Below are positions 21,111 to 60,447 of a stretch of DNA of 64,000 nt, one piece after another (within the stretch, counting starts at the first letter, position 1; each line of letters opens with the position of its first letter). Both the position numbers and the translations under genes were made by a program. Where the stretch lies: positions 43,705 through 107,704 of the forward strand of contig CAZIZX010000003.1 of the NCBI GenBank assembly GCA_964544275.1, given 5' to 3'. This DNA is from an uncultured Gammaproteobacteria bacterium (GTDB lineage: Bacteria; Patescibacteriota; Microgenomatia; UBA12405). The notes under the pieces were generated by a model that was given only the letters and a program-made list of their open reading frames with translations, ran no database searches and was not told the origin of the DNA.

Positions 21111-21113
21111 CAG

Positions 21114-31591: not shown

Positions 31592-31592
31592 A

Positions 31593-33547: not shown

Positions 33548-33683
33548 ATTGAGCCGAAGCTCATAATGTTATTTAACGTTAAATTACGGTGTTTTGTAAG
33601 TTGACTACTTGACATATGTTTTACTTAGTCATATAATCATAACTGATACTAACTGTATCATAAATCGATGGCTTAGGGGCTCC

Positions 33684-34457
33684 TCAGTGAGTCCCTTTTG
33701 CGTTTTTAAGGGCATTTTTTGCCTTGTCAGAGATCTCTCTCTGCCAACAAATAAAGTCTTTAATTTTCCAAATTTCGAACACAAAAACACCAGTAGCATT
33801 AAGTTCTGGAGCAATCCTTCCGGAAGTGGCAAAGATTACCACTTGTTTTCCGTCTTGGATAAGTTGCTCAATTGGGTCAGCAAAGTCACTATCACCACTC
33901 CAAAGAATGAAATTTTGGACTCCATTTCTTTCAAAATCCAAATACATATCACGACCCATTTCAACGTCAAAATTACATTTCCATTGTTCAACATATTTTG
34001 TCCCTGCTTTGTTTAACTCAAGCAGTTTATTGTTGAGAAACTTGATCGTTTCAACGTCTAATTTATTTAGTAGAGGTTTCTTAATAAAGTTTTGAAGCAC
34101 TGCAGGGGAGCCGTCAGGAGTACCGGATACGTCAATTGAAAGACGCATTCTTTTAATTGGTTTGGTTTTTACAACATAACCGTGCTTTTGGGCTTGATTA
34201 ATTATTGCTTCTGAAAATTGATCTCCGGGAACAGTACCATTGTAAAACCGTACGTTTTTAATTGTGTCAAAAGAGTCGAGGAATTGTTTCAGTCGTTCTA
34301 GATCAATATGCCAGCCTAATTTTTCCGACCAGTGGAACACATTGGCAAAATCAATATAAACGTTTGATGGTTTATCAAAAATACTTTCTAACTGAGTAAT
34401 TGCTTCTGGGTAAAGTTTAGAAAATGCATTTATTTTGTCAGTTTTTGGTTTAAACAT
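33684..34457 (-). CDS. NYN/LabA-like (DUF88) PIN-fold ribonuclease domain protein
   Basis: VYIDFANV and FILWSGDSDFADPIEQLIQDGKQVVIF match the conserved NYN acidic motifs. Confidence 0.6.
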   Translation of the reverse strand: MFKPKTDKINAFSKLYPEAITQLESIFDKPSNVYIDFANVFHWSEKLGWHIDLERLKQFLDSFDTIKNVRFYNGTVPGDQFSEAIINQAQKHGYVVKTKPIKRMRLSIDVSGTPDGSPAVLQNFIKKPLLNKLDVETIKFLNNKLLELNKAGTKYVEQWKCNFDVEMGRDMYLDFERNGVQNFILWSGDSDFADPIEQLIQDGKQVVIFATSGRIAPELNATGVFVFEIWKIKDFICWQREISDKAKNALKNAKGTH

Positions 34458-34460
34458 AAT

Positions 34461-35972
34461 TTATTTAATTCCTAAATCTTTTAAATACCCGTCCATTTCT
34501 TTCTCCAGTTTTTCTAGCTCTGGCTTGAGGGCCTCTAACTCCCGGAGGTTGGCAGCGATATCAATCGGGGCTTCTTCCTCGAAGGTGTCCACGTATCGGG
34601 TGATGTTTAAATTGAAGTCATTTTCTTCAATCTCGGCAAAATCTACCTTACGGGAGAATTTATCTACTTCTTGGCGATTAGCATAGGTGTTATAAATTTT
34701 TTCAATATTTTCATCTGATAGAGTGTTTTGAGCCTTACCTGGTTTAAATTCTTTTGAAGCCTCTACAAAGAGAATATCCTTTTTAGATTGATTGGCACCG
34801 CCACTTTCCCGAGATCTATCGATTATTAAAATGGCGACCGGAATGCCTGTGGTTTGGAAAAGGTTAGCAGGTAGACCAATGACAGCATCGATAATATTTT
34901 CTTTTAAAAGAGATTCACGAATTTTCCCTTCAGCTCCACCCCTAAATAAAACTCCATGGGGAACAATGACAGCCCCTCGGCCAGTTTTTGGTTTTAAAAC
35001 CTCAACCATGTGGGTGATAAAGGCATAATCACCCTTATCCTTTGGAGGTACTCCCCGGAAAAAACGATTGTAAGCGTCTGACTCAGCGTTTTCTGCCCCC
35101 CATTTTTTAAGGGAAAACGGAGGGTTTTGGACGCAGGTGTCGAACTTCATCAGCCGATCGTTTTCGACTAAAAGCGGATTGTTTAAGGTGTCACCCCATT
35201 CAATTCTGGCCGAATCCTTGCCGTGTAAAAACATATTCATCCTAGCAAGTTGGTAAGTGCTTCCTTTAGATTCTTGACCATAAAGTACGTAATTATTTGA
35301 CCCTTGAGCTTCAACTTCAGCACCGGCAAGTAAAAGTAGACCACCTGATCCGCAAGCGTTATCTACTATTCTGTCTCCCGGTTTTGGTTGAGCGAGTTTG
35401 GCTACCAATTTTGATACTTTACTTGGCGTGAAGAACTCTCCCGCTTTCTTTCCAGCATCGGCCCCAAACTTCTCGATCATGTACATATAGGCATTGCCCA
35501 TAACGTCATCATCCACCTCACTCAAATCAATCTTGTGAAAGTCACTGATTAAATTCCGAATCATTTTGTTGCGATTTTCCAGCTTGCCTAAGACTGATTC
35601 AGAATTAAAATCGATATTAAAAATTCCTTCAAGTTTAGATCGGTTAGCTTCTTCAATTTTGTCCAGAACTTTATTTAATTCCTCACCAATATTGTCATGT
35701 TCGATTATCGAATAGATATATTCAAAGGAAGTGTTTTCGGGCAAATAAAAACGGTATAATTTCAGTTTTTCTTCAATCCGTTGAGTATCACTTCCAAATC
35801 TTTCTTTATATTCCTGTCTTTTTTTATTAGAAAGATCGCTTAAATATTTATAAAAAAGCATTGCCAAGGCATAGTCTTTGTAAACCCCAGCATCAACTGA
35901 TGTCCGAGAGGAGTCAGCGGCCGACCAAAGCACTTTGTTCAATTCCTGTTGGTTGTATTTTTTTGGAGCCAT
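34461..35972 (-). CDS. hsdM: Type I restriction-modification N6-adenine methyltransferase M subunit
   Basis: HsdM N-domain, SAM motif DNACGSGG, and catalytic NPPF (VQNPPFSLKKW). Confidence 0.9.
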   Translation of the reverse strand: MAPKKYNQQELNKVLWSAADSSRTSVDAGVYKDYALAMLFYKYLSDLSNKKRQEYKERFGSDTQRIEEKLKLYRFYLPENTSFEYIYSIIEHDNIGEELNKVLDKIEEANRSKLEGIFNIDFNSESVLGKLENRNKMIRNLISDFHKIDLSEVDDDVMGNAYMYMIEKFGADAGKKAGEFFTPSKVSKLVAKLAQPKPGDRIVDNACGSGGLLLLAGAEVEAQGSNNYVLYGQESKGSTYQLARMNMFLHGKDSARIEWGDTLNNPLLVENDRLMKFDTCVQNPPFSLKKWGAENAESDAYNRFFRGVPPKDKGDYAFITHMVEVLKPKTGRGAVIVPHGVLFRGGAEGKIRESLLKENIIDAVIGLPANLFQTTGIPVAILIIDRSRESGGANQSKKDILFVEASKEFKPGKAQNTLSDENIEKIYNTYANRQEVDKFSRKVDFAEIEENDFNLNITRYVDTFEEEAPIDIAANLRELEALKPELEKLEKEMDGYLKDLGIK

Positions 35973-35973
35973 T

Positions 35974-36549
35974 TTAGTTATTAGAATTTAAAACATGTAA
36001 TAATGAACTTTCGGAAATAGTGGATAAAATTGAAATTTTTTTACTTAACAACTCTTGTTGTTTTACTATGCTCTTATAGAGTCGAGATACTTTCAACTGT
36101 TCGTCTTTGGATGGGGTTTCAACCACTAAACCCTCTAGGTTATATTTGGGAATTGATTTGATGTAATTGCCACTGCTTAGTCTTTCTAATTGAGATTGGC
36201 CTGATGGTGAATTTAAAAAGATTGATAAATATTCGGGACTAATCAAGTTTTTATTTACCCGGAGGACAAAAACAGAAGAGGATGCGATAGTTGGCACTTC
36301 TACTTTAACCACAGCCGCCCGATATCTTCCTCTAGAGGAGAGGACGACATCTCCACTTCTTACTATTGTGTTTTCCGGAAGCTTATCTGCCATTATTTTG
36401 GTTAAGTTTTCATCTTCAAAAACGAACCCGGCTCCAATATCTTTAGCCTGAATTACCTGGTAGTTACCATTAACATCTGGTACAAGGGCCGATCGAAAGG
36501 TGTACCCGGTGACGATATTTGCAATTTCACTTAATTTGTATGAGGTCAT
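35974..36549 (-). CDS. single-TRD (half) Type I specificity subunit
   Basis: One TRD plus a C-terminal coiled-coil conserved region, at 191 aa. Lies directly upstream of hsdM. Confidence 0.6.
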   Translation of the reverse strand: MTSYKLSEIANIVTGYTFRSALVPDVNGNYQVIQAKDIGAGFVFEDENLTKIMADKLPENTIVRSGDVVLSSRGRYRAAVVKVEVPTIASSSVFVLRVNKNLISPEYLSIFLNSPSGQSQLERLSSGNYIKSIPKYNLEGLVVETPSKDEQLKVSRLYKSIVKQQELLSKKISILSTISESSLLHVLNSNN

Positions 36550-38481: not shown

Positions 38482-40044
38482 GTGATTTTTGTGGTATTAT
38501 TCATCATAATGAAAGTTTCGAAAAAAGAATATTCTATAGTTAGAAAATTAAAAGAGAAACGGGAAAGACTGGGATTTCCTTCTCTAAAAACAACAGAATT
38601 GTTTTCTTCGAAAATAAAAAATGACCAAGATACACCTTCAATCAACATATTAGAACAGGTATCGGCCTACTCAGAAAATGAACTAAAAATTATATTGTCG
38701 AAACTTACGGGATTACAGCTTACAGATGGCTGTAATGGACGATGTCCGTTTTGTTTTTTGGGGACAAAAAAAGGAGTTACGTCAAAATACTCCTTTGAAT
38801 CTATAAAGATGTTCTTGAATAAGTATTCAAAATACATGCCCGGAACGACTGCGTTATATTGGGATTCTGATCCTTTCGATTATGTTGATGGGAGTTTTAC
38901 TTTTACAGATGTTTATACAGTCTGGGACACATTAAAACCGAACGATCGCAAATATGTGTCTACTGCTATTCCAAGAGGCGACGAAAATAGTTTTGTTAAT
39001 TTTATTGAGTATCAATTTGTTGCTTACCTAAACAAGAAAGAACCGCTGCCATTGAGGATAAGATTGTCTTTATCTAAGTTTAATATTCAAAGAGTTGAAC
39101 TAGTTTTTAAAGAGATTATTCGATTACTTGAGAAAAAGTATCCCAAACTTTTAATAAGTAAGTTTTTAAGAAAGCATATTGTCTTAGCCAATACTTTTGA
39201 TGATGAGGTAGTCACAATCGGTGGATTAATTGATCAACACGATGACATCAAGGACATCTTTACACCTGCTTGTAAAGATGGCACGGTTATATCACCAAAG
39301 TCGATAAAAGCAGTAATGGTGACCATACCAACGAAATATGAACCGTCTGGTCAGAAACAAATAGAACTTATTCCTAAAAAAGTAGAAAATTTGGTACCAC
39401 ACTATCACCATATAATTGACCATTCTGGTTTTTTTACCAAGGACTCACTCGAGAAGAAATTGATAACTGGTCAAGTTATGTTGGATATTATTCGTAAGCA
39501 CGATGGAAACTTTTTCAACTTGGAGGACAAGATTGACAATATCATATTAAAAATGGCTAGAGAAATTGCTTCAGTCGGAAGATTGATAATTGACCTTTCT
39601 TTCTTATATTCACATCCGAAAACAATTATGAAATCTGAAGAACTTAAAAATCGATATCTTAAAGTTGTTACTCACGTTTATTTAAAAAGAAGAAAAGATG
39701 TCGTAAAGTTAATTGAAACATCTAAAAAAATACTTGATACAAAAAAAGAACCAAAAAAAGAGGAACTCCAATATTATAAGTACCTAGCAACTATTTATCT
39801 AAAAAAAATAGACTATTTAATTGAATTGATCAAGTCAAAAACACCCATTGATAGACTCAGTGCAACAGCTGATTTACTTTCTCAAATAGAAGGAAAACAT
39901 ATGGATAAGATCGATGTGATCATTAAAGGACTTCGGGAAAGCAACTTTGGTGCTATCAGTAAGATTTTTTCCAAAAATTCTAAGTATAAAGGACAACCTG
40001 CGTGGTATGAAACTGCTGAATACTTATGTTCCCAAGCTAATTAG
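38482..40044 (+). CDS. radical SAM domain protein (520 aa, long uncharacterised C-terminal extension)
   Basis: CxxxCxxC in GCNGRCPFCF. Convergent with the minus-strand rSAM operon. Confidence 0.6.
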   Translation: MIFVVLFIIMKVSKKEYSIVRKLKEKRERLGFPSLKTTELFSSKIKNDQDTPSINILEQVSAYSENELKIILSKLTGLQLTDGCNGRCPFCFLGTKKGVTSKYSFESIKMFLNKYSKYMPGTTALYWDSDPFDYVDGSFTFTDVYTVWDTLKPNDRKYVSTAIPRGDENSFVNFIEYQFVAYLNKKEPLPLRIRLSLSKFNIQRVELVFKEIIRLLEKKYPKLLISKFLRKHIVLANTFDDEVVTIGGLIDQHDDIKDIFTPACKDGTVISPKSIKAVMVTIPTKYEPSGQKQIELIPKKVENLVPHYHHIIDHSGFFTKDSLEKKLITGQVMLDIIRKHDGNFFNLEDKIDNIILKMAREIASVGRLIIDLSFLYSHPKTIMKSEELKNRYLKVVTHVYLKRRKDVVKLIETSKKILDTKKEPKKEELQYYKYLATIYLKKIDYLIELIKSKTPIDRLSATADLLSQIEGKHMDKIDVIIKGLRESNFGAISKIFSKNSKYKGQPAWYETAEYLCSQAN

Positions 40045-41224
40045 TTTTGTTATTTATTATCACTAATGGAGTCTCTGTTTCTTCTGGTGTTAATCCTCCA
40101 TGATTACCAACACAATTCCTTTTACTTTCTCCAAGCTCTTTCCACCAGAATTGATATCCAGGCTCAGGTAATATTAATATTTCTCCTATACTATCAATGT
40201 ATTGAGATGAAACATGTTTTTTGTCTATTGGATCTGTTTTTATAAAGTCACTAACTAAAACAACCTTTGCTTTATCAGCTAATGATTCTAATAGTATGTT
40301 TCTTACCTGTTCAACATAGGGTTGTTCTATATAGAGGGAGACGTCTCTTCCTGATCCGCCAGGAACTAATGGGTTATTATCAGACCCTTTTCTAAAGTAT
40401 TTTCGTATTTGATAAATATAATCATCGAGATCTAAAGTGTTAGGACAATTTATCTGTCCGTGGTCTGAACATATAATTAGTTCAATCGGTTTTTGACTGG
40501 CATCAATTGGCTTAAGAACATAACTTTCGACTAATGAAAATAAATTATCTAAAGCAAGTCCAAACTCTGTCGAGTCGTAACCGAACTTATGAGAAATTTT
40601 ATCTAATTTGTCATAATACATAAAATAATATCCTGGAGTAGTTTTATTAAGAACATCGGAAATTATGTCAGCCATTGCTGTTTCAGGTTTTGAATATCCG
40701 TTGATCTGCGAACCAACACACATGGATTTTGAGAATTCTGAATTAATCAAGTTTTCAGATAGATAAACTCTGCTTGGGACATTTATATTTTTTAATTCTA
40801 GATAAATTGTTTTTGTCGAAAAAATGTCTGAACTTTTAATACCTTTACGACTAAGCTGATTGTAAGTTGTGTCTCCGGCAAAGGAGAACATGAGCGGGGA
40901 AATGGTTCTTCCAACTAACCGGTTAAAATACAGCCACTCGGTTACCCCCGTTTGGTACACCGTCTTGCCTTGAATAGTCGATAAATGCGCTGGAGTTGAT
41001 GAAGGAAGAAGCGAATGGTTTTTGTAGATTTGACTTCGGTTTACCAAGCTCTGAAGTGAAGGTATTTGGCTAACATGTTTATCTAAGCTGTTCCAGCCGA
41101 ACCCATCAATAAATAAAAGTATGACCTTACTCTCTGTTGTAGAACTGAATATACCTTTAATATAATGGGGAAGATCACTAAAATTAAATTCAGAAATAGT
41201 GTCTGAAAGTTTACTATTTGCCAT
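40037..41224 (-). CDS. alkaline-phosphatase-superfamily type I phosphodiesterase/nucleotide pyrophosphatase-like enzyme
   Basis: LLFIDGFGW, the nucleophile region LLPSSTPAHLSTIQG (cf. T-F-P-N-H-y-S-I-v-T-G), and the metal ligand CSDHGQ. Confidence 0.6.
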   Translation of the reverse strand: MANSKLSDTISEFNFSDLPHYIKGIFSSTTESKVILLFIDGFGWNSLDKHVSQIPSLQSLVNRSQIYKNHSLLPSSTPAHLSTIQGKTVYQTGVTEWLYFNRLVGRTISPLMFSFAGDTTYNQLSRKGIKSSDIFSTKTIYLELKNINVPSRVYLSENLINSEFSKSMCVGSQINGYSKPETAMADIISDVLNKTTPGYYFMYYDKLDKISHKFGYDSTEFGLALDNLFSLVESYVLKPIDASQKPIELIICSDHGQINCPNTLDLDDYIYQIRKYFRKGSDNNPLVPGGSGRDVSLYIEQPYVEQVRNILLESLADKAKVVLVSDFIKTDPIDKKHVSSQYIDSIGEILILPEPGYQFWWKELGESKRNCVGNHGGLTPEETETPLVIINNKTN

Positions 41225-42200
41225 TTTTGATAGTCCTTAGTATTCCTTTTGCAGTTTCTATACACTTGATATAACCATCGTTATTGTAGGTCTCATTTGA
41301 CTTTAATCTTTTTATAAAATCTTCAATTTCTCTTTTATAAAGTTCATTTGAATCATCACTATAACTTTTTAGAGTTTTATTTGAGTTAATGACTTCTAAT
41401 AATACGGTCCCGTCAATCTTTGTAGACACACGGTATATATGTTTCTTTCCAACAAAACATATCTCCAACAAATCATTACCTTGGGAATAAGAAGCCGATG
41501 AAATTACGCCAATACAATTATCTAATTTAAATACCAAGGTTTCAGAGTCACGTAAACTGCAGTTTGGCTCAATTACTTTATTTATCAGAGAGTTACTAGA
41601 AACAAAAGAAAGAGGTTTGACAGATTTCTTCAAGATATATTCACAGTAGTCTATAAAGTGCATTGCTTTTTCATATGAATTTCCACCAGATAACTCATGA
41701 TCCAATTTCCACTCCTGAAAAGGGGGTGAGGAATATCTAATTGCGTGAATGTATCCAATTTCATCATCGCTAATTAATTTAACCAAGCGGTCATTAAAGT
41801 TTAAAAAACGCCATTGATACCCTATTTTTACATGTATGTTTTTATTGTCTTTAAGACATTGAATCAATTTATCTTGGTTTGCGGTTAAAGGCGGTTTTTC
41901 AACGAAGTAGCTGATATCTTTTTTAATTAGTGCTTTTTCATATTCATATCTAGCGAAAGGTGGGGTGCAAATAAATACAATGTCCGGACTTTCAGAGTTC
42001 AGCCAATCTTGAAAATCAAAGTATAGTTTTCCAAAAATATTTTGACAATAACTTAATTGCTTATTAGAATAATCTTTAAATTTTGGATTAAAACAACTCG
42101 TAATTTCTAAGCTATCTAATATTTTTTTTAAAATTGCAGCATGGGCTCTGGCTATTAATCCACTTCCAATAAATGCAATTTTAAAGCGTTGTTTAGACAT
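41214..42200 (-). CDS. Gfo/Idh/MocA-family NAD(P)-dependent oxidoreductase
   Basis: N-terminal Rossmann motif KIAFIGSGLIARAH, with the typical length and topology. Confidence 0.7.
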   Translation of the reverse strand: MSKQRFKIAFIGSGLIARAHAAILKKILDSLEITSCFNPKFKDYSNKQLSYCQNIFGKLYFDFQDWLNSESPDIVFICTPPFARYEYEKALIKKDISYFVEKPPLTANQDKLIQCLKDNKNIHVKIGYQWRFLNFNDRLVKLISDDEIGYIHAIRYSSPPFQEWKLDHELSGGNSYEKAMHFIDYCEYILKKSVKPLSFVSSNSLINKVIEPNCSLRDSETLVFKLDNCIGVISSASYSQGNDLLEICFVGKKHIYRVSTKIDGTVLLEVINSNKTLKSYSDDSNELYKREIEDFIKRLKSNETYNNDGYIKCIETAKGILRTIKNGK

Positions 42201-43507
42201 TATTGACTTAAAAATTCCTCATAAGCCCATTTTGCTAATTTTTCAAGTCTTTCTCTGGTAAGGCTGGTATTACCAGAAACATTCCGTTCGTTGTAGGATT
42301 TATTGCTGTACCACTGCCGATCGTCGATGACGATACCATATTTTTCCGGTTCATCCCCCAATGCAGTTCCCGGAAAAGGTGTTAGAAGATTAAATGAAAC
42401 CATTTGGGGATTGATTTCCTTGGCGATTTTGACAGTGTTTCTAACTGTCTCTTCTGTGTCGCCTGGTAAGCCAAAAAGAAATGAAGCATGAAGAGCTATG
42501 TTATATTCTTTTAAAATTTTAGCAGAATCTTTGAGCATATTTGGGTTTACCATCTTGTGGATATTATTTAATATTTCAGGTGAAAAAGATTCAAAACCAA
42601 CAAAAACTCGATAGCAACCAGAATCTCTCATAAGTCTTAACATCTCCCGAGTCTCTTTACTATCAATCAACCTGTCTGCTCTGATATTACATGACCATTT
42701 CAGTTTTATTCCCTGATCAATAACTTTTTTTGAAAATTCAGTAATTCTTTCTTTTTTAACCCCGAAGTCTAAATCAGAAAAAAATATTGAATCAAATCCA
42801 AGCGATAGAACTTCTTTTATTTCTTCAATAACTTTATCGATATTTCTAAATCTTAGGCACCTGTCCATTGAGCTACTTTGACAAAATAGGCATCGATTAG
42901 TGCATCCTCTTGCCGCCTGTACGATTGTTTCTTTATCCTTTTTAAGGTATTCCTTTATTGGGAATAAATGTCTTGCTGGAAAAGGCAAATTGTCTAAGTT
43001 AGTAATTGGTTTTTCATCAGGATTTTTAATAATTTTATTGTTTTCGCGATAAGTAATTCCTTTGACTTTTCGTAAATCACCATTACTGTTTAAAGTTTTT
43101 ATGAGGTTAAGTAATACGATTTCTGGTTCATATCTAATAATAAGATCAATTTCCGGATTATTTTCCATCGTCTCAAGGTCCCGAAATGTAACATGAGCTC
43201 CAGTCATTACTATCATGAGATTTGGAAATTTTATTTTTAAATCTTTGGCAAGTTGGAGGGCAAAATAAAAGTCGCGTGTTTGAAGGACGGTATTTTCTGA
43301 ATTTATTACAATAAAGTTATACTGGTTTTTCTCAATCAGTTTGAACAGCTTGGTATTAGATATATCTTTAACTGCTAAGTCAACAATGCCATGATTTATA
43401 GAGTTACTCTCTAATATTGCTGCGGCGTATGCCAAACCTAAAGGCAAGTGAGTTATTCCGAACTTTACTGGAAATCTGGAATTGATTAAAATTGGCTTTA
43501 CTGTCAT
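42200..43507 (-). CDS. B12-binding (class B) radical SAM enzyme
   Basis: N-terminal cobalamin-binding-domain pattern (LPLGLAYAAAIL...IVDL), and rSAM CxxxCxxC in GCTNRCLFCQS. Confidence 0.8.
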   Translation of the reverse strand: MTVKPILINSRFPVKFGITHLPLGLAYAAAILESNSINHGIVDLAVKDISNTKLFKLIEKNQYNFIVINSENTVLQTRDFYFALQLAKDLKIKFPNLMIVMTGAHVTFRDLETMENNPEIDLIIRYEPEIVLLNLIKTLNSNGDLRKVKGITYRENNKIIKNPDEKPITNLDNLPFPARHLFPIKEYLKKDKETIVQAARGCTNRCLFCQSSSMDRCLRFRNIDKVIEEIKEVLSLGFDSIFFSDLDFGVKKERITEFSKKVIDQGIKLKWSCNIRADRLIDSKETREMLRLMRDSGCYRVFVGFESFSPEILNNIHKMVNPNMLKDSAKILKEYNIALHASFLFGLPGDTEETVRNTVKIAKEINPQMVSFNLLTPFPGTALGDEPEKYGIVIDDRQWYSNKSYNERNVSGNTSLTRERLEKLAKWAYEEFLSQ

Positions 43508-43761
43508 TTTTCCAGCACTCCCAGTTTGTCTAATTTACTTATAAAATTTTGAAGTTCTTTCTCGACAGTTGAAGAATCAACGTCATACTTACTTACCAAT
43601 ACCGTCACTATTTCTTCACTTGTCTTTCCTTCTTTTAACAAAAGAAACATTTCACTGGCAGTTCCATTAAATTCATGAAAAAAATCCCTATCAGGATCAA
43701 AAATTAAAATTGTGTCATTTTGATTTGTTCTAACCTTAACTGAATTTGATATTTTTACCAT
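43504..43761 (-). CDS. PqqD-family peptide-binding protein (RiPP recognition element)
   Basis: TILIFDPDRDFFHEFNGTASEMFLLLKEGKTSEEIVTVLVSKYDVDSSTVEKELQNFISKLDKLGVL matches the PqqD pattern (LN.TA..IW.LLDG..T..EI...L...Y.V......DV..FL..L...GL). Confidence 0.7.
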   Translation of the reverse strand: MVKISNSVKVRTNQNDTILIFDPDRDFFHEFNGTASEMFLLLKEGKTSEEIVTVLVSKYDVDSSTVEKELQNFISKLDKLGVLEK

Positions 43762-43762: not shown

Positions 43763-44767
43763 TTATTTTTGATTTAATAAATAATTACATCGAAAGTCTA
43801 ATCTGTTTTTATCAGCAAATGAAAACCCTTTACACCCGCCTTGACACAGCTCAACATATTTACATGATCGGCATCGAGTAGAAACAGGGAATTCTTTTTT
43901 CATAAAGTTTTTAACTTTTTTTAAAATTGAATCAAAATCTTCTTGATAAGCATTCCCGAGACTTTTCGGTAAAAAATTACATGGCTGAACGTCCCCGTTC
44001 GGTAAAATTGAAACCCAAAGTTTTCCGGCCTGGCAGATATTCTCATCAATCATTTGGTGTCGCTCAATTTTATTTAAAAAACGATGATCCATTTGTGAGA
44101 TTACTAATGGATCATGAAACCCAATAATTATCTTGTTTTGATATTTCTGTTTATAATCCCAGATCTTGTCAACAATGTCGTGATACTCAGTTGAAGTAAA
44201 GCTATATTCATCATGGATCCCGTCGGATGATGGTCTAATCATTAAAAAATCAATTTCTTCAAGTTTGTTTTCAACTGAAAATTTAATAAAATCTTCGAGA
44301 TGGTTATAGTTATGTCGATTGATAGTTGTATTTACGCCAGTTTTAAGACCGTTTTTTTGACTGTTTTTTATTCCCTCTATAGCCTTTTCCCAAGCAAAAG
44401 GTCTTCTTCTTAGATTATTATGGTATTCACTATCCAGCGAATCTAAACTGATTTGCACCTTATTTAGACCTTTTGAAAAAAGTGATTTTGCCTTATCATC
44501 TGTTAAAAAGAATCCATTCGATAAAAGAGTTAAGTAAAAACCTTTTTCATGGGCATACTGAATTATCTCTTCAAAATCTTCTCTGATTAAACTTTCTCCA
44601 TGAGTAAAAATTAGCTTAATAACTCCATGCAAAGCCAAATCGTTAATTAACTTTTTTATCTGGGATAAAGGTACGTCCGCGACAATCTTTTTGTGGACGT
44701 AACAGTGCTTACAATTAAGGTTGCATTTGTAGGTTACTCCAAAAAATATCTGGTACGGATATTTCAT
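43763..44767 (-). CDS. radical SAM/SPASM-domain peptide-modifying enzyme
   Basis: N-terminal CxxxCxxC (YKCNLNCKHCY). C-terminal SPASM cysteine cluster (CQAG...PCNF...CRSCKYVELCQGGCKG). Confidence 0.8.
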   Translation of the reverse strand: MKYPYQIFFGVTYKCNLNCKHCYVHKKIVADVPLSQIKKLINDLALHGVIKLIFTHGESLIREDFEEIIQYAHEKGFYLTLLSNGFFLTDDKAKSLFSKGLNKVQISLDSLDSEYHNNLRRRPFAWEKAIEGIKNSQKNGLKTGVNTTINRHNYNHLEDFIKFSVENKLEEIDFLMIRPSSDGIHDEYSFTSTEYHDIVDKIWDYKQKYQNKIIIGFHDPLVISQMDHRFLNKIERHQMIDENICQAGKLWVSILPNGDVQPCNFLPKSLGNAYQEDFDSILKKVKNFMKKEFPVSTRCRSCKYVELCQGGCKGFSFADKNRLDFRCNYLLNQK

Positions 44768-44790
44768 TTGTGGTGGTATTATACCAAAAA

Positions 44791-44833: not shown

Positions 44834-44896
44834 TTAGCAATGCAAACGGAGACTTCTTGTTCGGATTACGGGTTTTACCCACTTGGATTTTTGCAT
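44834..44896 (-). CDS. unannotated 20-aa ORF MQKSKWVKPVIRTRSLRLHC, candidate precursor peptide
   Basis: ATG preceded by AAAAGGAGTCAT (a consensus SD with 5-nt spacer). TAA stop. Sits immediately upstream of the rSAM-SPASM/PqqD operon on the same strand. Confidence 0.5.
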   Translation of the reverse strand: MQKSKWVKPVIRTRSLRLHC

Positions 44897-44973
44897 ATGA
44901 CTCCTTTTAGATGCTAATAACAATTACATTATACACCTTATTTTTGCTAAAATACCATATTTAAAGGCGATAT

Positions 44974-46239
44974 ATGACACTAATCAATACCTTACCACCA
45001 AAAGGCATGCGGGACTTTTATCCTGAGGACTACAGAGTAAGAGAATGGCTGTTCAAAATCTGGAGAGATACGGGCATTAAATATGGGTTTGAAATGTATG
45101 ATACTCCGGTAGTAGAGAGTCTATCACTATTAGTCAGGAAGGCTGGAGAAGAAATAACCGACCAGATTTACTATTTTAAAGATAAAAGTGACCGTGAATT
45201 GGCCTTGAGGCCTGAACAAACACCTAGTCTAGCGAGAATTGTTTTGTCCCGAGAAAATGAATGGGTATATCCACTTAAATTGTCCGCCACAGTTCAATGT
45301 TTCAGATATGAAAAAATGTCAACTGGTAGAAAAAGGGAGCATTTTCAATGGAACGTAGATATTATTGGTGATGCAACTCAATTAGCCGAGGCTGAAGTGC
45401 TATCGACTGCTGTGGAGTCTATTAAAGAAATGGGCTTAGATAGTACTGATGTGGGAATATCAGTTGGCTCCAGACAGCTAATAGCAGATTTATTAAGATC
45501 GAAGAATATCAATGAGTCTGATTATGTGAACATATTTTTAGTATTAGATAAGAAAGGTAAAGTATCAGATGAAGTACTTAAGGAAATGTTAATAGAAAAA
45601 GGTATATCAGAAGAAGATATTGGTAAAGTTTTTGAAATATTCGCTATTAAAAATTTTGAAGAGGCAAAAAAAATTGTTGGTAATAAATCACTTGGTGCCA
45701 ACCAACTGGATAATTTATTTCAGTATGCAAAACTATATGGCATTAGTGAATTTCTGGAGTTTAATATTGGGATTGTAAGGGGACTAAACTATTACACGGG
45801 AATTGTTTTTGAAGCTTTTGACAGACAGAGGAAATTTAGAGCAATATTTGGAGGAGGTCGGTACGACAACCTACTCGAATCCTTCGGAGGTAAAAAAATT
45901 CCTGCTGTTGGGTTCGGATTCGGTGATGTAGTAATTCTGGAAGTGTTAAAAGAATTAAAGAAAAATCTACCGGAAAAAAGGAAGCTGGACTACGTTGTTA
46001 CTTACTCTGATGGAAATCTCGAGAATAAGGCTATTAAATTATGTATAAGTTTGCGTAACAAGGGTAAGACTGTTTATATGATACCTGGCGAGACAAAGAT
46101 GAAAAAATCATTAGCCATGGCAGATAAGATGAATGCGGATTATGTAGACATTTTAGACCCCATAGAAATGGATCAGGGGAAATTTATCGAAAAAAACCTA
46201 AAAGAAAGAACTCAGGAAGTGTTGGACTTCATGGTGTAA
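44974..46239 (+). CDS. hisS: histidine--tRNA ligase
   Basis: Class II aaRS motifs: N-terminal LPKGMRDFYPED, motif 2 region, and motif 3 GGGRYDNL. Confidence 0.85.
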   Translation: MTLINTLPPKGMRDFYPEDYRVREWLFKIWRDTGIKYGFEMYDTPVVESLSLLVRKAGEEITDQIYYFKDKSDRELALRPEQTPSLARIVLSRENEWVYPLKLSATVQCFRYEKMSTGRKREHFQWNVDIIGDATQLAEAEVLSTAVESIKEMGLDSTDVGISVGSRQLIADLLRSKNINESDYVNIFLVLDKKGKVSDEVLKEMLIEKGISEEDIGKVFEIFAIKNFEEAKKIVGNKSLGANQLDNLFQYAKLYGISEFLEFNIGIVRGLNYYTGIVFEAFDRQRKFRAIFGGGRYDNLLESFGGKKIPAVGFGFGDVVILEVLKELKKNLPEKRKLDYVVTYSDGNLENKAIKLCISLRNKGKTVYMIPGETKMKKSLAMADKMNADYVDILDPIEMDQGKFIEKNLKERTQEVLDFMV

Positions 46240-46927
46240 TTATTTGAATGTTTTTCAATGGTATTGGCTGAATAACCCTTATATACGCCCTTTTGGAACC
46301 TTCCAAGTATGGAATATATTTATTTAAATCCTTTGAAATACTTGTAAAGTGCTCAAAGCTACCGAACGGGGATGGCCAATATATCTCCTTTAGGTTCCTA
46401 CCTAAATGTTGAAACTTAGCTTTCTCAAGAAAAGGCGAGTCTCCATTTACGGAGATAATTTTATTTTCAAAACATAGTTTTTTATTTACCCAGCCTGATA
46501 AATATTTCAATAGATTCTTTTCTTCTTCTGGCAACTCACTTTCGACTGTTAAAAGGTGTGAACAAATCTCTCCAATATTATTAACTAAATATCCGCCTTT
46601 CCACCTGTTAACCATCTGAATAACTTCTTCATATGAAGTTGAAAAGTCAAGACTCTTTTCGTAAAAGTCATTTAATGTTATTCGAAGCACACGACTTAAT
46701 TTTGGGGTACTCGACGTCCATTTTAATTTAAAAATTCTTCCAGTTTTTTCAAGTTTCAAGACTAAGGTAAAAAGATCAAGAAGCCGGCCATGAATTGATT
46801 TGTATGGGTTGTTTTTAGGATTGATTATTCCAGTTGTATTTAGTAGATATTCACTAGACATGGCACGATACAACCTTTTATTCTTAACCTTAGTTTCCCA
46901 ATATTTATACAACTCGTCAGTATTCAT
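46229..46927 (-). CDS. hypothetical protein
   Basis: Intact 232-aa ORF with no recognised motif. Confidence 0.45.
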   Translation of the reverse strand: MNTDELYKYWETKVKNKRLYRAMSSEYLLNTTGIINPKNNPYKSIHGRLLDLFTLVLKLEKTGRIFKLKWTSSTPKLSRVLRITLNDFYEKSLDFSTSYEEVIQMVNRWKGGYLVNNIGEICSHLLTVESELPEEEKNLLKYLSGWVNKKLCFENKIISVNGDSPFLEKAKFQHLGRNLKEIYWPSPFGSFEHFTSISKDLNKYIPYLEGSKRAYIRVIQPIPLKNIQIITP

Positions 46928-46940: not shown

Positions 46941-48743
46941 TTAAATGCTAACTTTTTTAACCAAGTCTTCAATCATTTTATATCCGTCAAGCCAGAATTC
47001 CTCTGAATTTATATTCATACCTAAATCAATTAATAGTTCTTGAGGATTTTTTGAATTACCAGATGATAATACTTTTTCAATTTGTGAAACGATATTTCCC
47101 CGTCTGTTTTTAAATTGAGAATAAATTGAATAAGAAAGTAGTTCGCCAAAGTTATATGCGTAACAATAGAAAGGAACTTCAAACAAATGTCTGATGCAAG
47201 CCCATTCGTATCGGAAAAGTGGGTCAATCTGAACTACTTTACTGTACTGTTCTTTTTGCAAGTCAAAATATATTTGACTTAGAATTTCTGGATCTGTACC
47301 ATCCCTAAGATATTCAAATGCTCTTATTTCGAATTGAACTAAGAATATCTTCTTAATCGTCATAGAGTAGGTATCTGTTAGTTTCTGCGATATTATTGAT
47401 GCTTTAATTACAGGATCTGCCTCCATACTTAAAAGGTGATCAAAGACTATCATCTCGGCTAAGTTGGAGGCTGTTTCAGAAAGTGGCAAACTAGATTCTT
47501 GAATAGACGGATACAAATTTCCAGAATACATTGAATGAATTGCGTGACCTACTTCGTGCGCCAGGGCAAACACATCAGAGACTTTATTGTAATAGTTTAT
47601 AAATACATATGGAGTTACCTTAGGGCTGACAGTTTCGCAAAAGGCACCATATTGTTTATTTGCATGAGGAAGGTAATCTATGTGCTGAGATTCGAATACT
47701 AACTTTCCAAACTCATAAAACTTAGGGCTAAAGCACTGGAATGAGTCTAGAATTAACTCTTTGGCTTGTTTAAAACTAATGGTTGTTTCTTCTTTGTTTA
47801 CCGAGGCATGGGTATCAAAACGACTTAATTTATTTAATCCCAACTGTTCTGCTTTATATTCAAAAAGAGGATTAAAAATCTCCTTCTTTTGATAAGCTAG
47901 TTTTAATAACAAATTCACAGTATCTCCAGAAATATCATTATCGAAATTGCGAACCGAAATAGGACTGTTATAACCCCTTAGTTCTGATTCTCTAGTCCAA
48001 TCTTTTACTAGTGATTGATAAACGAGAAAATGTTTATTAATATCGTTTCTATATTTTGTCAACATATGTTTATAAGCCTGATCCCTTAATTGACGGTTGG
48101 AGTCATACGTATAAGACATCAAGTCTGACTGTGATAGGGTTTTTATAGTATTTTTATCAATCTTAAGTTTAAATCTATAATCATTAATCAACTGATTCCT
48201 TAGCTCAAGCAACGAGTTTAGTCCTATTTCATCTTTATGTTCGATAATACTTTCTTCTTTATTGCTAAGTCTATGTTCATAAGCTTCTTTCTTATGATTT
48301 ATAAAATACTTACAAGTTGGGATTGATTTTAAAAGTCTATTGTAATTTTCTAGGTCTAGGGTAGGTTTGTTTTTTATGCTTATTCCAGTTAGCCATTTAT
48401 CAATATCACCTATCTGTTCGTTTACATAAATGATCAACTCGTTTGCTTTATACCTTAGTTTTTTTAACGTTAGATCGTTCTGATCAACACAAATACCCAA
48501 ATCTATTCTGCTAATTAATTTCTTTGAATCACTTGTTACTTCTTCTTTAGATTCAAAAAATTTAACAAAGTCTTCTGTCGACACTTCCGGAGTAATCTTT
48601 ACCCATGTGGAAAGCAGGTTTTCAAGTTTGGTTTTTAATTCATGACACAAAGTGTCAAACTTATCCAATGGATAGATATCATCTAAGTTCCACTTACCAA
48701 TTTTTATTCCCTGTTTCTTAGATATCTTGGGCATTTTGCTCAA
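46941..48743 (-). CDS. pepF: M3-family oligoendopeptidase F
   Basis: HEXXH in LAHEVGHAIHS. Length and motif spacing are typical of M3B PepF. Confidence 0.8.
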   Translation of the reverse strand: MSKMPKISKKQGIKIGKWNLDDIYPLDKFDTLCHELKTKLENLLSTWVKITPEVSTEDFVKFFESKEEVTSDSKKLISRIDLGICVDQNDLTLKKLRYKANELIIYVNEQIGDIDKWLTGISIKNKPTLDLENYNRLLKSIPTCKYFINHKKEAYEHRLSNKEESIIEHKDEIGLNSLLELRNQLINDYRFKLKIDKNTIKTLSQSDLMSYTYDSNRQLRDQAYKHMLTKYRNDINKHFLVYQSLVKDWTRESELRGYNSPISVRNFDNDISGDTVNLLLKLAYQKKEIFNPLFEYKAEQLGLNKLSRFDTHASVNKEETTISFKQAKELILDSFQCFSPKFYEFGKLVFESQHIDYLPHANKQYGAFCETVSPKVTPYVFINYYNKVSDVFALAHEVGHAIHSMYSGNLYPSIQESSLPLSETASNLAEMIVFDHLLSMEADPVIKASIISQKLTDTYSMTIKKIFLVQFEIRAFEYLRDGTDPEILSQIYFDLQKEQYSKVVQIDPLFRYEWACIRHLFEVPFYCYAYNFGELLSYSIYSQFKNRRGNIVSQIEKVLSSGNSKNPQELLIDLGMNINSEEFWLDGYKMIEDLVKKVSI

Positions 48744-53796: not shown

Positions 53797-54378
53797 TTGC
53801 TAAAATCTCTTATGGCAACCATCTACCTTTTTCGTCATGGTCAATCTGAATTTAACCTAAGCAAAACTTTTACCGGCTGGCTGGACGCCAAACTTACTCC
53901 TTTAGGCATTGATCAAGCTAAAGCCTTGGGTAAAATGCTTCGGGACAAACAAATCAATCTAGCCGTTCAAACTCGTCTTTCCCGTTCCTCCGATACCCTG
54001 AAATATGTCCTGGAATACCATCCCGAATGTCAACAAATCATTACCGACGATCGCATAATCGAACGGTCCTATGGTGATTTAGCCGGCCATGCCCATCAGG
54101 AGATTTTAGATAAATACGGCCCACAACAATTCGAAAAGTGGCACCGGGGCTGGGATGACCGGCCTCCCGGTGGCGAAAGTTTTGCCGATGTCGAAATTAG
54201 GGTAGGGGAATTTATAAACGATTTAAAATCAAAATATAATCAAAAAAATCTCGGCATCGCTATTTCTGCCCACGGCAACTCTATCAGATTATTCCGAAAA
54301 ATCATGGAAAACGCCAGTGTTAAAGACACCTGTTCCTGGACCATTCCTTATGACCAATATTTCCAGTACACTATCTAA
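53797..54378 (+). CDS. 2,3-bisphosphoglycerate-dependent phosphoglycerate mutase-like histidine phosphatase
   Basis: LFRHGQSEFNLSKTFTGWLDAKLTPLGIDQA is typical of the dPGM family N-terminus. Confidence 0.7.
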   Translation: MLKSLMATIYLFRHGQSEFNLSKTFTGWLDAKLTPLGIDQAKALGKMLRDKQINLAVQTRLSRSSDTLKYVLEYHPECQQIITDDRIIERSYGDLAGHAHQEILDKYGPQQFEKWHRGWDDRPPGGESFADVEIRVGEFINDLKSKYNQKNLGIAISAHGNSIRLFRKIMENASVKDTCSWTIPYDQYFQYTI

Positions 54379-55825
54379 AATCTCCAATCTGATCAAAAAA
54401 AACATACTCTTGATCTTGATTATTTTAGCTTTCATACCGATTCACTCCTACCGCCTCCTGGAAATACCCATGGGTCTGACTGTCGACGAAGCCGCTTTTG
54501 GCTACAACGCCACCCTCCTTTCTCGTACTCTCCACGACGAAAACAATCGCTTTTTACCCTTTTTCGTTCTCTCTATTAACGGTCGCGATTGGCGTCAACC
54601 GGTCACTCAATATTATCTCACCGCTTTTTTTAAACTTTTTGGCGCTTCGGTTTACAACCTTAGGATCAGTAGTATTTTAGTGACCCTTGTTACAGCCGTC
54701 TTGCTTTACTTTCTGACTTATCATCTACTCAAATCCAAGGCCTTATCTATCTTTGCTGTTGTCTTGTTTTTAGTTACACCCATAGTTTTTATCCAGTCCC
54801 GCTTGGGTCTGGATAATCACATGACCGTTCCTTTCACCATAATCTGGTTGCTGTCTTTGTATAAGCATGCTCAGGCAAAAAATATCAAATGGTTGCTTCT
54901 TTCAGCCGTTTCTCTGGGTATTTCTTTTTATACCTACAAAGGTATGCGGGCTGTTGTTCCCGTTTGGTCACTTGCCAGTGTTTATTATCTCCTCAAAAAA
55001 ACTAACCTCAAAAGTGTCGTCATATTTTCTTTAACCATTTTTCCCTTTTTTGCCATAATTCCTCTTCTGGAATTAAAATACGCCGGGGCTGTTTTCAACA
55101 ACCATGGGGCCAAACCCATGGCTTATTATGATTTTTTGTACCCCTACCTCTCCTCGTTTGACCCTGGTTTTCTCTTCATAAAAGGCGATGCCACTCCCTA
55201 CCATTCCACCGGCAAACACGGTATGGTTTTACTTCTGTCACTACCTCTCTTTTTAGCCGGTATTTACGCTGCTCTTAGAAAAAATTTCAACCTCAAATTT
55301 TTAATAATCGTCTTTTTCTCTGCTCCGCTACTTATGGGGATGGTCGACTCAGTCCATCGGGCCAGCCGGTTAATGTGCATCCTACCCGCCTTTGCTATCT
55401 TCGCCGCCTTGGGCTTACACCACTTAACAACCACATCTTCAGGTAAATACAAAAAATTGGTTTTACTCCTGCTCATTCTACTGATGGCCAACTTTTCCGA
55501 TTTCTATCGCTACTACTTTAAAGATTACGGTCCAACAACTCAAAGTTTCGTCGGCCGGCTAGATTATTATTCCTCTTATCAGTCACTTAAAGATGAATCC
55601 GAACAAAGAAATTTAAAACCATTTCTGCCTCATACCCTGACTAATCAGCACGGCGAAACCGGAAAATTCTATGAGTCAATTTACTTTACCCACCAAATAG
55701 GCAGGATCGATAATGAAGAAAATTTAAGTCCTGGCTCTATTGTCCTTTCTCTTCGCCAAGATGTACCGGGTCTGACTAAGATCCTTTGTGACAATAATAA
55801 TTATTGTCTCCATGCCAAATATTAG
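54350..55825 (+). CDS. polytopic membrane glycosyltransferase (GT39/ArnT/PMT-like)
   Basis: More than 10 predicted TM helices and an extracytoplasmic loop motif (LTVDEAAFGYNA). Start moved to MTNISS to reduce overlap with the upstream gene. Confidence 0.5.
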   Translation: MTNISSTLSKISNLIKKNILLILIILAFIPIHSYRLLEIPMGLTVDEAAFGYNATLLSRTLHDENNRFLPFFVLSINGRDWRQPVTQYYLTAFFKLFGASVYNLRISSILVTLVTAVLLYFLTYHLLKSKALSIFAVVLFLVTPIVFIQSRLGLDNHMTVPFTIIWLLSLYKHAQAKNIKWLLLSAVSLGISFYTYKGMRAVVPVWSLASVYYLLKKTNLKSVVIFSLTIFPFFAIIPLLELKYAGAVFNNHGAKPMAYYDFLYPYLSSFDPGFLFIKGDATPYHSTGKHGMVLLLSLPLFLAGIYAALRKNFNLKFLIIVFFSAPLLMGMVDSVHRASRLMCILPAFAIFAALGLHHLTTTSSGKYKKLVLLLLILLMANFSDFYRYYFKDYGPTTQSFVGRLDYYSSYQSLKDESEQRNLKPFLPHTLTNQHGETGKFYESIYFTHQIGRIDNEENLSPGSIVLSLRQDVPGLTKILCDNNNYCLHAKY

Positions 55826-55841
55826 CCCGACATTCTTCTAT

Positions 55842-56219
55842 TTATACAGACACAAAATCAATATTCGGATATCGCTCACCTAAAATTTCCAGTGTTTCAT
55901 TCCTCACCCTTGGCAACAAATCTTCTTCAGGCATTTTAAAGGTGGTCGACTCTCCTCCAATCATACATTGACCATCGATCCTCATCACAAAACCCATGTC
56001 TGTTTCCTCAACTTGATTTTTCAATCTTTCTTTTATCTGTTCTTCCGTAAAATCATCTCCCAAAATATCCTCTATTAATTCTCTATGGCGTATATCTACA
56101 TCCTCAGCCACCCTAACTTCATTCCCGATCCTTACAAAACGAAGACCCTGCATTTCTTTTTCACAAAAATTCGACATGACCCATATTTTACTATGGTTAC
56201 TCTCCCATTTCCTCCTCAA
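55842..56219 (-). CDS. hypothetical protein
   Basis: Intact 125-aa ORF downstream of eno. Confidence 0.4.
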   Translation of the reverse strand: MRRKWESNHSKIWVMSNFCEKEMQGLRFVRIGNEVRVAEDVDIRHRELIEDILGDDFTEEQIKERLKNQVEETDMGFVMRIDGQCMIGGESTTFKMPEEDLLPRVRNETLEILGERYPNIDFVSV

Positions 56220-57465: not shown

Positions 57466-57492
57466 AAGTCTATTATAACCAAGCTCTTATTT

Positions 57493-58332: not shown

Positions 58333-58451
58333 TTATGTATCCATTATAACCTTTTACCCCCTTGACCATTTACCACCGCTTACTTACAATATTAGCAGTC
58401 TGCCCCGACGAGTGATAAAATAGTTAATAATTATTATTGTAATTTAATCTT

Positions 58452-58751: not shown

Positions 58752-58766
58752 ATTATTAATTATTAA

Positions 58767-60425
<1,659 letters not shown>

Positions 60426-60447
60426 AGGCTGTTAACACAAAAATTAA

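Follow-up and report, generated by a model that had tools for sequence, protein, structure and literature searches.

A conserved 20-residue peptide gene beside radical SAM/SPASM and PqqD genes, and the match between its penultimate residue and a neighbouring aminoacyl-tRNA synthetase

Does an open reading frame (ORF) of only 20 codons, lying directly upstream of a radical SAM/SPASM and PqqD gene pair, encode the peptide on which these proteins act, and if so, what might the product be for? The question is raised by a stretch of 64,000 nucleotides (the window, meaning the whole stretch at its full length) from an uncultured bacterium placed in the Patescibacteriota (GenBank assembly GCA_964544275.1, contig CAZIZX010000003.1), in which an earlier note had singled out the ORF as a candidate precursor peptide of the operon. 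Comparison of homologous loci shows that the ORF is a real gene, with purifying selection acting on the protein that it encodes, and it is best read as the ribosomally made substrate of a rare, undescribed radical SAM system resembling those of peptides synthesised ribosomally and modified post-translationally (RiPPs). The most informative feature of the locus is its link to a divergent gene for histidyl-tRNA synthetase (HisRS), an enzyme cognate to the penultimate His of the peptide. The genes on which the argument turns are listed below.

44834..44896, minus strand: gene of the probable precursor (substrate) peptide, 20 codons and TAA, MQKSKWVKPVIRTRSLRLHC
43763..44767, minus strand: radical SAM/SPASM enzyme, 334 aa, with Pfam Radical_SAM and SPASM matches; presumed primary maturase of the peptide
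43504..43761, minus strand: PqqD-family protein, 85 aa (Pfam PqqD, E 4e-12); presumed RiPP recognition element
42200..43507, minus strand: B12-binding-domain radical SAM enzyme, 435 aa, with Pfam B12-binding and Radical_SAM matches
44974..46239, plus strand: hisS, encoding HisRS, divergent and 77 nt from the peptide ATG (TIGR00442, 319 bits against a cut-off of 287)

Read on the minus strand, the ORF runs from an ATG at 44896-44894 through 20 sense codons to a TAA at 44836-44834, in exact agreement with the earlier note. Three arginines near the C-terminus and a single, C-terminal cysteine were likewise described correctly there, whereas the four Lys/Arg residues claimed for the first eight positions are in fact three lysines. 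Such an ORF is no rarity: because 11 ORFs in the window, most of them inside longer genes, combine an ATG, a Shine-Dalgarno-like motif within 14 nt and a length of 15-60 codons, a Shine-Dalgarno motif with a small ORF is not by itself above chance. Three further ORFs, each 20 codons or longer, overlap this intergenic region too. No model in Pfam or NCBIfam covers the peptide, and annotation pipelines left its gene uncalled in most of the contigs examined.

What places the ORF above chance is its conservation in homologous loci with substitutions of the coding type. A small ORF ending in Cys and a stop codon, in the same register, lies upstream of homologous radical SAM/SPASM, PqqD and B12-binding radical SAM genes in 12 lineages, whose radical SAM/SPASM enzymes are 40-68% identical to that of the window. 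The only exception in spacing is L017 (L001 and similar labels denote homologous loci), in which a gene for prolyl-tRNA synthetase (ProRS) sits between the peptide gene and the radical SAM/SPASM and PqqD genes. An equivalent ORF is present in every homologous locus with readable upstream DNA, which bears out the proposal of a precursor belonging to this operon. The peptides are as follows.

Window, L001 and L034: MQKSKWVKPVIRTRSLRLHC
L002: MQKSKWVKPVVRTRSLRLHC
L005: MRQWISPTIRTRSLRLHC
L006-8: MKNQKASALKKASKKAAWVKPVVRTRSLQMGC
L009-11: MKKPKLVKPVVRTRSLKSPC
L012: MQRKNNYKRNKRNKKQWEKPVVRSRSLRLHC
L013: MEKVKKTKWVKPLIRCRSLRLHC
L014-16: MNKIKKATKWVKPVIRIRSLQMGC
L017: MKKTKWIKPVIRTRSLKSPC
L026: MKKPKLVKPVIRTRSLKSPC
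L036: MKKPKLVKPVIRTRSLNSPC
L037: MEKKTTCKKVKKTWKRPVVRSRSLKLHC

These peptides share a fixed-register core, [W/L]-x-x-P-x-[V/I]-R-x-R-S-L-x-x-x-Cys-stop, and a common architecture: the N-terminus is basic and variable, [W/L]xxPx[V/I]RxRSL comes next as the conserved motif, and three residues that depend on the class lead to the final Cys. P9, R12, R14, S15, L16 and C20 are invariant. In the window peptide, the motif corresponds to residues 6-16 (WVKPVIRTRSL) and the class-specific tail to residues 17-19 (RLH), and Cys20 is invariant across the family and in every case C-terminal. Thus, of the C-terminal RLHC for which conservation had been anticipated, the Cys held throughout, whereas RLH is one of several variants (RLH/KLH, QMG and KSP/NSP, according to class). 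Conservation at the amino-acid level, the check that the earlier note had called for, is evident from the substitutions: pooled over the 15 core codons, the proportion of synonymous differences (pS) is 0.86 (saturated) and that of nonsynonymous differences (pN) 0.23, which gives a ratio of 0.27 in frame, compared with 1.11 and 1.16 for the same DNA in two control frames. Third codon positions vary in 14 of the 15 core codons.

The peptide motif was also sought independently of the radical SAM enzyme. A scan of JGI metagenomes with a degenerate DNA pattern of the motif gave 11 matches, four of them true and seven evidently due to chance, and each of the four true matches lies directly upstream of a radical SAM gene. 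One of the chance matches, L025 (KPVIRSRSLIGVC, then a stop), was set aside as having neither a start codon nor a radical SAM gene. A scan of viral contigs returned a single match, due to chance; in the window, the pattern occurs once, with 0 occurrences expected. The rule PxxRxRSLxxxC-stop beside a radical SAM gene can serve to find a peptide gene that would otherwise go uncalled.

The role of the peptide as a precursor, with binding to the recognition element and modification as the predicted events, is very probable. The gene bears the generic marks of a RiPP precursor, being a short ORF co-oriented beside a recognition-element protein and a maturase and under purifying selection at the protein level. 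Its partners are equally constant, as the PqqD gene directly follows the radical SAM/SPASM gene in every sufficiently long locus and the B12-binding radical SAM gene is present in 11 of the 11 loci that extend far enough. The invariant core therefore consists of the peptide, the radical SAM/SPASM enzyme, the PqqD-family protein and the B12-binding radical SAM enzyme.

The radical SAM enzymes and the PqqD-family protein belong to no named family, because their NCBIfam scores fall far below the curated cut-offs. The best match of the radical SAM/SPASM enzyme is NirJ2 (171 bits against a cut-off of 500), followed by such families as MftC (TIGR03962, 107 against 265), PqqE (TIGR02109, 96 against 381) and WgkB (96 against 650), and the PqqD-family protein gives weak, below-cut-off matches to lasso, WgkC and Scm PqqD chaperones. 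The nearest characterised relatives of the radical SAM/SPASM enzyme, all at weak similarity, are the peptide-acting SkfB, SuiB, PqqE and CteB and the nucleoside-sugar-acting BlsE; those of the B12-binding enzyme with solved structures are AprD4, TokK, OxsB and CysS. The family is sharply bounded: in a profile search of 5.8 billion proteins, 16 clusters scored at least 435 bits and the next 274. Among 185,579 species-representative genomes there is one true member, in a Patescibacteria metagenome-assembled genome; six other loci from that scan were rejected as distant radical SAM enzymes of 21-34% identity. A literature search found no description of the peptide motif or of a radical SAM-based, synthetase-linked RiPP system, and the family appears to be undescribed as well as rare.

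The link between the locus and an aminoacyl-tRNA synthetase extends well beyond the window. Four contigs of the species group to which the window belongs carry both HisRS and the radical SAM/SPASM gene, and most of the homologous loci are flanked by genes for class II synthetases. Across the family the peptides fall into three tail classes, ...HC, ...PC and ...GC, which are accompanied by the following synthetases.

...HC, window and L001: HisRS, upstream, divergent
...HC, L013: HisRS, last gene, same strand
...PC, L009 and L010: ProRS, downstream, convergent
...PC, L017: ProRS, between the peptide and radical SAM genes
...PC, L036: ProRS, upstream, same strand
...GC, L014: glycyl-tRNA synthetase (GlyRS), downstream, same strand

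In all six informative lineages, i.e., those with both a readable peptide tail and a readable flanking synthetase, the penultimate residue is the amino acid for which the synthetase is specific (His in two, Pro in three and Gly in one), and there are no mismatches. The ProRS and GlyRS assignments also lie above the curated equivalog cut-offs (571-576 bits against 437 and 594 against 312, respectively). HisRS, ProRS and GlyRS all belong to subclass IIa. Because the position and orientation of the synthetase gene differ among lineages, the linkage has survived rearrangement. A seventh locus, P0011, has hisS directly upstream, its peptide DNA not being among those read. The other six of the 12 lineages are uninformative, mostly because their contigs end too early; L005, which was counted among them, carries upstream a 40-aa, class-IIa-like C-terminal synthetase fragment whose best, weak match is threonyl-tRNA synthetase (E 8e-4).

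In a bootstrapped neighbour-joining tree of the radical SAM/SPASM enzymes, the P clade (98%), the G clade (100%) and the window's H subclade (100%) are well supported, whereas monophyly of all H-class enzymes received 4%, the H class being paraphyletic. The tree thus calls for at least two tail switches, each with a matching synthetase; it appears that an ancestral His tail was exchanged for Gly and for Pro, in both cases together with the synthetase concerned. Counting one event per class and 20 synthetase types, the chance of three matches is approximately 1e-4, a rough estimate that leaves aside the added improbability of synthetase adjacency itself. The match between tail and synthetase is a robust observation.

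Several further observations concern the synthetases and their surroundings. A precomputed match to Pfam HGTP_anticodon (PF03129) is lacking for the cluster-linked HisRS of L013 and of the species group to which the window belongs (P0163-P0165, P0176), whereas most other HisRS homologues at approximately 50% identity have one, as does the HisRS of the P0011 locus. Upstream of its peptide gene, the Pro-class locus has a gene for tRNA-Trp (L009 101-172; L010 980-1051), and just past the ProRS gene one for tyrosyl-tRNA synthetase, so that translation genes cluster around this locus. Among tRNA genes, the cluster has no consistent neighbour.

What, then, might a modified peptide do beside the synthetase that its penultimate residue predicts? 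The closest parallel is offered by the tiarins, the trifolitoxin (TFX) family, in which the residue before an invariant modified Gln matches a synthetase encoded in the cluster as a duplicated, resistant copy; TFX itself is imported, trimmed by PepN to a warhead that starts with the specificity residue, and inhibits arginyl-tRNA synthetase (Travin et al., bioRxiv 10.64898/2025.12.02.691738). That preprint makes no mention of a radical SAM, PqqD or Patescibacteria system (10.64898/2025.12.02.691738). With the tiarins, the present clusters share a short precursor gene just upstream of maturases that include a recognition element, an invariant residue (modified in tiarins) preceded by a residue matching the linked synthetase, and a common core supplemented by clade-specific tailoring enzymes. 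Set side by side in this way, the present system shows the same organisational logic. However, it is not a tiarin, because the FMN-dependent (flavin mononucleotide-dependent) dehydrogenase pair TfxB/TfxC with its recognition-element domains, often accompanied in tiarin clusters by YcaO, and the conserved core Gln are both missing: Pfam and NCBIfam scans of the cluster genes found none of these enzymes but only radical SAM, PqqD, B12-binding radical SAM, Gfo/Idh/MocA, alkaline-phosphatase-family and carbamoyltransferase proteins, and the peptides have no conserved Gln column but a C-terminal Cys. The maturases are instead a radical SAM/SPASM enzyme, a discrete PqqD protein and a B12-binding radical SAM enzyme. 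Moreover, the predicted targets of tiarins are mostly class I synthetases, whereas those linked here are all class IIa, and neither an exporter nor a GNAT protein was seen in the present clusters.

A second parallel is microcin C, whose last residue is turned into a mimic of an aminoacyl-adenylate that is released by peptidases of the target cell, in the manner of a Trojan horse. Systems of this type likewise use a very short peptide without leader removal, and the adenylate-mimic logic is proposed here by analogy with them. Microcin C itself needs a C-terminal Asn as well as MccB, a ThiF-like adenylyltransferase, and targets aspartyl-tRNA synthetase only, whereas in the present cluster there is no match to the MccB/ThiF family, the last residue is Cys, and the specificity residue is the penultimate one.

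Other radical SAM systems provide models for the chemistry. The maturases of sactipeptides, ranthipeptides and streptide/WGK peptides (SkfB, CteB, PapB, SuiB and WgkB) are the nearest solved or curated peptide-modifying relatives of the radical SAM/SPASM enzyme, and a thioether is the commonest fate of Cys in systems of this kind. However, scores for the sactipeptide and ranthipeptide families (SCIFF, PapB, StsB and SkfB) are below their cut-offs, and the peptide has a single Cys rather than a Cys-rich core with donor-acceptor pairs; the StsA peptide model matches it at E 0.062 (13 bits against a cut-off of 42). There is also no obvious conserved thioether acceptor, since the T/S/C/I position varies, Trp is exchanged for Leu and Lys for Ser or Arg. 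The same exchanges (that of Trp in the P clade; that of Lys in L005 and L037), in addition to the WgkB score, separate the peptide from the streptide/WGK type. If the penultimate residue (X) acts as a free N-terminal specificity residue, a cross-link enclosing it would be incompatible with that role. The chemistry is probably on the Cys itself, given that X has to remain recognisable and that the residues at the three positions before the Cys differ between classes.

A possible course of events can be put together from these comparisons. The PqqD-type recognition element would bind the conserved WxxPxVRxRSL segment, and the two radical SAM enzymes would act on the C-terminal X-Cys. Because no leader protease is encoded, the full-length peptide is taken to be the pro-form; its unmodified basic N-terminal part would be a carrier, trimmed off by peptidases. 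The peptidases would thereby release X-Cys*, where the asterisk stands for the modified residue, and by analogy with tiarins and microcin C this might be an aminoacyl-adenylate mimic that sits in the active site of its cognate class-IIa synthetase. The linked gene would then encode a resistant (immune) form of that target, and clade-specific enzymes (Gfo/Idh/MocA, a NodU-type carbamoyltransferase, a second SPASM radical SAM enzyme, an alkaline-phosphatase (AP)-family phosphodiesterase and a protein of approximately 140 aa) would tailor the shared scaffold. Accessory enzymes of types usual for sugars and nucleosides, along with the relatives BlsE, AprD4 and OxsB, hint at a glycosyl or nucleoside-like addition; the similarity to these three is weak, and they stand alongside peptide maturases among the nearest solved relatives. 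By this analogy, there is about an even chance that the modified peptide functions as a synthetase inhibitor, the best supported of the functional readings. The fuller proposal, of a second, independent family of programmable Trojan-horse synthetase ligands made in ultra-small Patescibacteria-type bacteria by radical SAM/cobalamin chemistry on X-Cys and with one-codon specificity, is tentative and stands slightly below even. Similarly tentative is its corollary that the linked, possibly only, synthetase copy is the resistant target and the product either a weapon against hosts or competitors or an internal translation brake.

A number of observations weigh against this proposal. None of the visible clusters was seen to contain an exporter, a protease or an immunity gene of the GNAT type, which would be unusual for a secreted antibiotic. 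The hosts look like small-genome, Patescibacteria-type bacteria, so the linked synthetase may be the sole copy; the 64-kb window contains one hisS. The window HisRS looks like the product of an ordinary hisS gene, and its relationship to the other cluster-linked HisRS (50% identity, approximately 14th of 6426 matches) does not stand out; in the search for its homologues, no special immunity clade could be told apart from ordinary housekeeping enzymes. The informative lineages number only six and fall into three or four phylogenetic groups. In L006 and L012, the readable flank of 1-3 kb contains no synthetase gene. The characterised radical SAM enzymes nearest to that of the window, which act on peptides or on a nucleoside sugar, are weakly similar to it. 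The role of the product might also be an intracellular one, in regulating the synthetase of the producer or as a cofactor. As regards L006, a DDE transposase gene (5058-6008, minus strand) lies just after this Gly-class cluster, where L014 carries GlyRS, and an insertion sequence may have broken the linkage there.

Should the proposal nonetheless prove correct, a one-codon change would retarget a natural scaffold among the class-IIa synthetases HisRS, ProRS and GlyRS, for which few natural inhibitors are known, and the family would complement the mostly class-I-directed tiarins. The combination of a specificity residue, an invariant modified residue and a linked synthetase would then have arisen on at least two occasions with unrelated enzymes. 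Further implications would be a new reaction of the radical SAM/SPASM, PqqD and B12-binding radical SAM trio on a C-terminal cysteine and a rare case of specialised peptide chemistry in bacteria resembling those of the candidate phyla radiation.

The alternative that fares best beside the inhibitor proposal is that the peptide is a precursor or scaffold for an intracellular small molecule or cofactor comparable to mycofactocin or pyrroloquinoline quinone (PQQ), with the C-terminal dipeptide cut out as a metabolite or redox cofactor for the producer's own use and the synthetase neighbourhood mechanistically unrelated to the product. A discrete PqqD-family chaperone and a radical SAM/SPASM enzyme acting on a very short peptide with crucial last residues parallel MftA/MftB/MftC and PqqA/PqqD/PqqE, and in mycofactocin the chemistry is indeed on the C-terminal dipeptide. 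The NCBIfam matches to MftC and PqqE, the adjacent oxidoreductase genes, the small genomes of the hosts and the clusters without exporter or protease point the same way. However, the MftC and PqqE scores are far under their cut-offs; the peptide has neither the GVY of mycofactocin, ending instead in x-x-X-C, nor the E-x3-Y of PQQ (no Glu/Tyr motif); and the clusters have no MftD/E/F and no PqqB/C. Above all, one conserved core would be expected of a cofactor, whereas there are three tail classes, and the tracking of the synthetase by the penultimate residue in 6 of 6 informative lineages, with three different amino acids, is left unexplained. This alternative is therefore unlikely.

It might also be that the synthetase is a biosynthetic partner rather than a target, with the enzyme itself, or its aminoacyl-tRNA or aminoacyl-AMP, serving in maturation, e.g., in a tRNA-dependent step like those of the valanimycin and pearlin pathways or by aminoacylating the thiol of the Cys. 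Synthetases can reportedly aminoacylate thiols such as cysteine (work of Jakubowski), and a match between X and the synthetase would be equally expected of a partner. In addition, some biosynthetic clusters elsewhere contain synthetase genes that serve tRNA-dependent steps (10.64898/2025.12.02.691738). Nonetheless, X is already encoded in the peptide and there is no obvious need for a second one; the clusters contain no PEARL/LanB-like, Fem-like or other transferase using aminoacyl-tRNA; and a housekeeping synthetase would serve in trans without linkage. A role as a partner is thus decidedly unlikely.

The signals around the ORF bear on a further alternative, namely, that the peptide is a regulatory leader or arrest peptide whose penultimate codon senses tRNA charging, or whose nascent chain stalls, and which thereby controls the hairpin, the operon and the linked synthetase. 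The relevant elements of the window are given below.

44901..44906, minus strand: Shine-Dalgarno motif AAGGAG, with a 4-nt spacer (TCAT) before the peptide ATG
44928..44935, minus strand: TGTATAAT, an extended -10-like, putative promoter element approximately 30 nt 5' of the peptide ATG, kept in L001
44786..44817, minus strand: 12-bp GC-rich hairpin (GAAATATCCGCC/GGCGGATATTTT) with a U-tract after it, in the spacer from the peptide stop to the radical SAM start

The sequence preceding the peptide ATG at 44896 on the minus strand is AAAAGGAGTCAT, and the consensus Shine-Dalgarno motif described in the earlier note is present, although its spacing is 4 nt and not 5. It is a lineage feature rather than a family feature: three of the 12 lineages have one, L001 and L002 conserving that of the window and L013 also possessing one, and the nine others do not. 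A consensus promoter scan did not list TGTATAAT, for want of a -35 match. The 66-nt spacer between the peptide stop and the radical SAM ATG at 44767 folds at -22.4 kcal/mol, and its hairpin stem, GAAATATCCGCC/GGCGGATATTTT, is identical in L002. The hairpin resembles an attenuator or intrinsic terminator, by which the ratio of precursor to enzyme may be set; the terminator scan did not report it. A TATAAT box (GGTATAAT; 44778-44783, minus strand) lies between the hairpin and the radical SAM ATG, 10 nt 5' of the latter, and is kept in L001 and L002. It could yield a near-leaderless radical SAM transcript, which would fit the missing Shine-Dalgarno motif of that gene, correctly noticed before (its ATG is preceded by GGTATAATACCACCACAA).

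The terminator-like hairpin after the window ORF is strong, and other features also suit a leader. In L017, the peptide is directly upstream of ProRS with hairpins in between, and in L013 and L014 the synthetase gene is the last on the same strand. The Trp approximately 14 residues from the C-terminus, together with a basic segment that would lie in the ribosomal tunnel, recalls arrest peptides, of which TnaC is an example. However, in three of the six informative loci attenuation of the synthetase in cis is impossible, as its gene lies either upstream of the peptide (ProRS in L036) or on the other strand (hisS, divergent, in the window; ProRS, convergent, in L009/L010). Attenuator leaders would be expected to keep their hairpin in all lineages, whereas it follows the peptide ORF in five of the 12, and the other seven have gaps of only 17-53 nt from the peptide stop to the radical SAM start, without a hairpin. 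Because the Shine-Dalgarno motif and the hairpin are so patchily distributed, the conserved element is the peptide and not the RNA signals. Furthermore, one regulatory codon makes for weak attenuation, the P clade has Leu in place of the Trp, and PqqD, the invariant recognition protein, would be left without a peptide substrate. A leader or arrest peptide is very unlikely.

Finally, a chance ORF, or a non-coding RNA or leader structure as the conserved element, is effectively refuted: Shine-Dalgarno-like small ORFs are common in the window and the 216-nt intergenic region folds better than its shuffles (z = -4.1), but coding-type substitutions occur in this frame alone, the peptide is kept where flanking DNA, Shine-Dalgarno motif and hairpins are not, the ORF ends in Cys-stop in register throughout, and a scan of the intergenic region against Rfam found no relevant family, which together with the substitution pattern rejects a small RNA or riboswitch.

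Beyond the invariant core, the clusters carry accessory genes that differ among clades.

41214..42200, minus strand: Gfo/Idh/MocA-family NAD(P) oxidoreductase, 328 aa, an accessory tailoring gene
40037..41224, minus strand: alkaline-phosphatase-superfamily phosphodiesterase/nucleotide pyrophosphatase-like protein, 395 aa (Pfam Phosphodiest, E 3e-21)
L006 4611-5051, L009 3123-3530, L014 4744-5175 and L036 4711-5121: accessory protein of approximately 140 aa in Gly- and Pro-class clusters

The Gfo/Idh/MocA gene is also found in L002, L009/L010, L013 and L036, and as a fragment in L037. The AP-family gene is confined to the window's clade (the window and L002), in which the L002 orthologue is 55% identical. 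A NodU-type carbamoyltransferase occurs in L006, L012, L013, L014 and L037 (54-66% mutual identity), a second SPASM radical SAM enzyme in L012, L013 and L037, and a second B12-binding radical SAM enzyme in L036. The protein of approximately 140 aa, which is not encoded in the window, has the motifs HxG ... FExKI ... HIGxHV and no match in Pfam or NCBIfam; by eye alone, it resembles a metal-binding pattern of the VOC/glyoxalase type. The amidohydrolase genes beside L002 and L006 share no homology with each other and for this reason were rejected as cluster members.

Next to the cluster in the window, a 520-aa protein (38482-40044, plus strand) is encoded convergently on the cluster end; it contains a CxxxCxxC motif (CNGRCPFC) and has a sub-threshold Radical_SAM match (20.8 bits against 29.5), and it is not beside the cluster in L002. 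On the other side, a 232-aa ORF (46229-46927, minus strand) overlaps the 3' end of hisS; it is identical in L001 and has no Pfam or NCBIfam match. It is followed by a gene for an M3 oligoendopeptidase F-like peptidase (46941-48743, minus strand), the sole peptidase near the cluster.

Elsewhere in the window, a complete Type I restriction-modification locus (27666-36549) comprises genes for a YgjP-like metallopeptidase, HsdR (1068 aa), HsdS, a DUF4145 protein, an NYN-domain protein, HsdM and a truncated second HsdS. Genes for tRNA-Ser(CGA), tRNA-Arg(GCG) and tRNA-Ser(GCT) are grouped at 21028-21911, and a lone tRNA-Cys(GCA) gene lies at 60519-60590. At 54001-64000, the G+C content rises from approximately 0.33-0.37 to 0.40-0.44 with a strongly negative GC skew, which marks this part of the window as a compositionally distinct segment.

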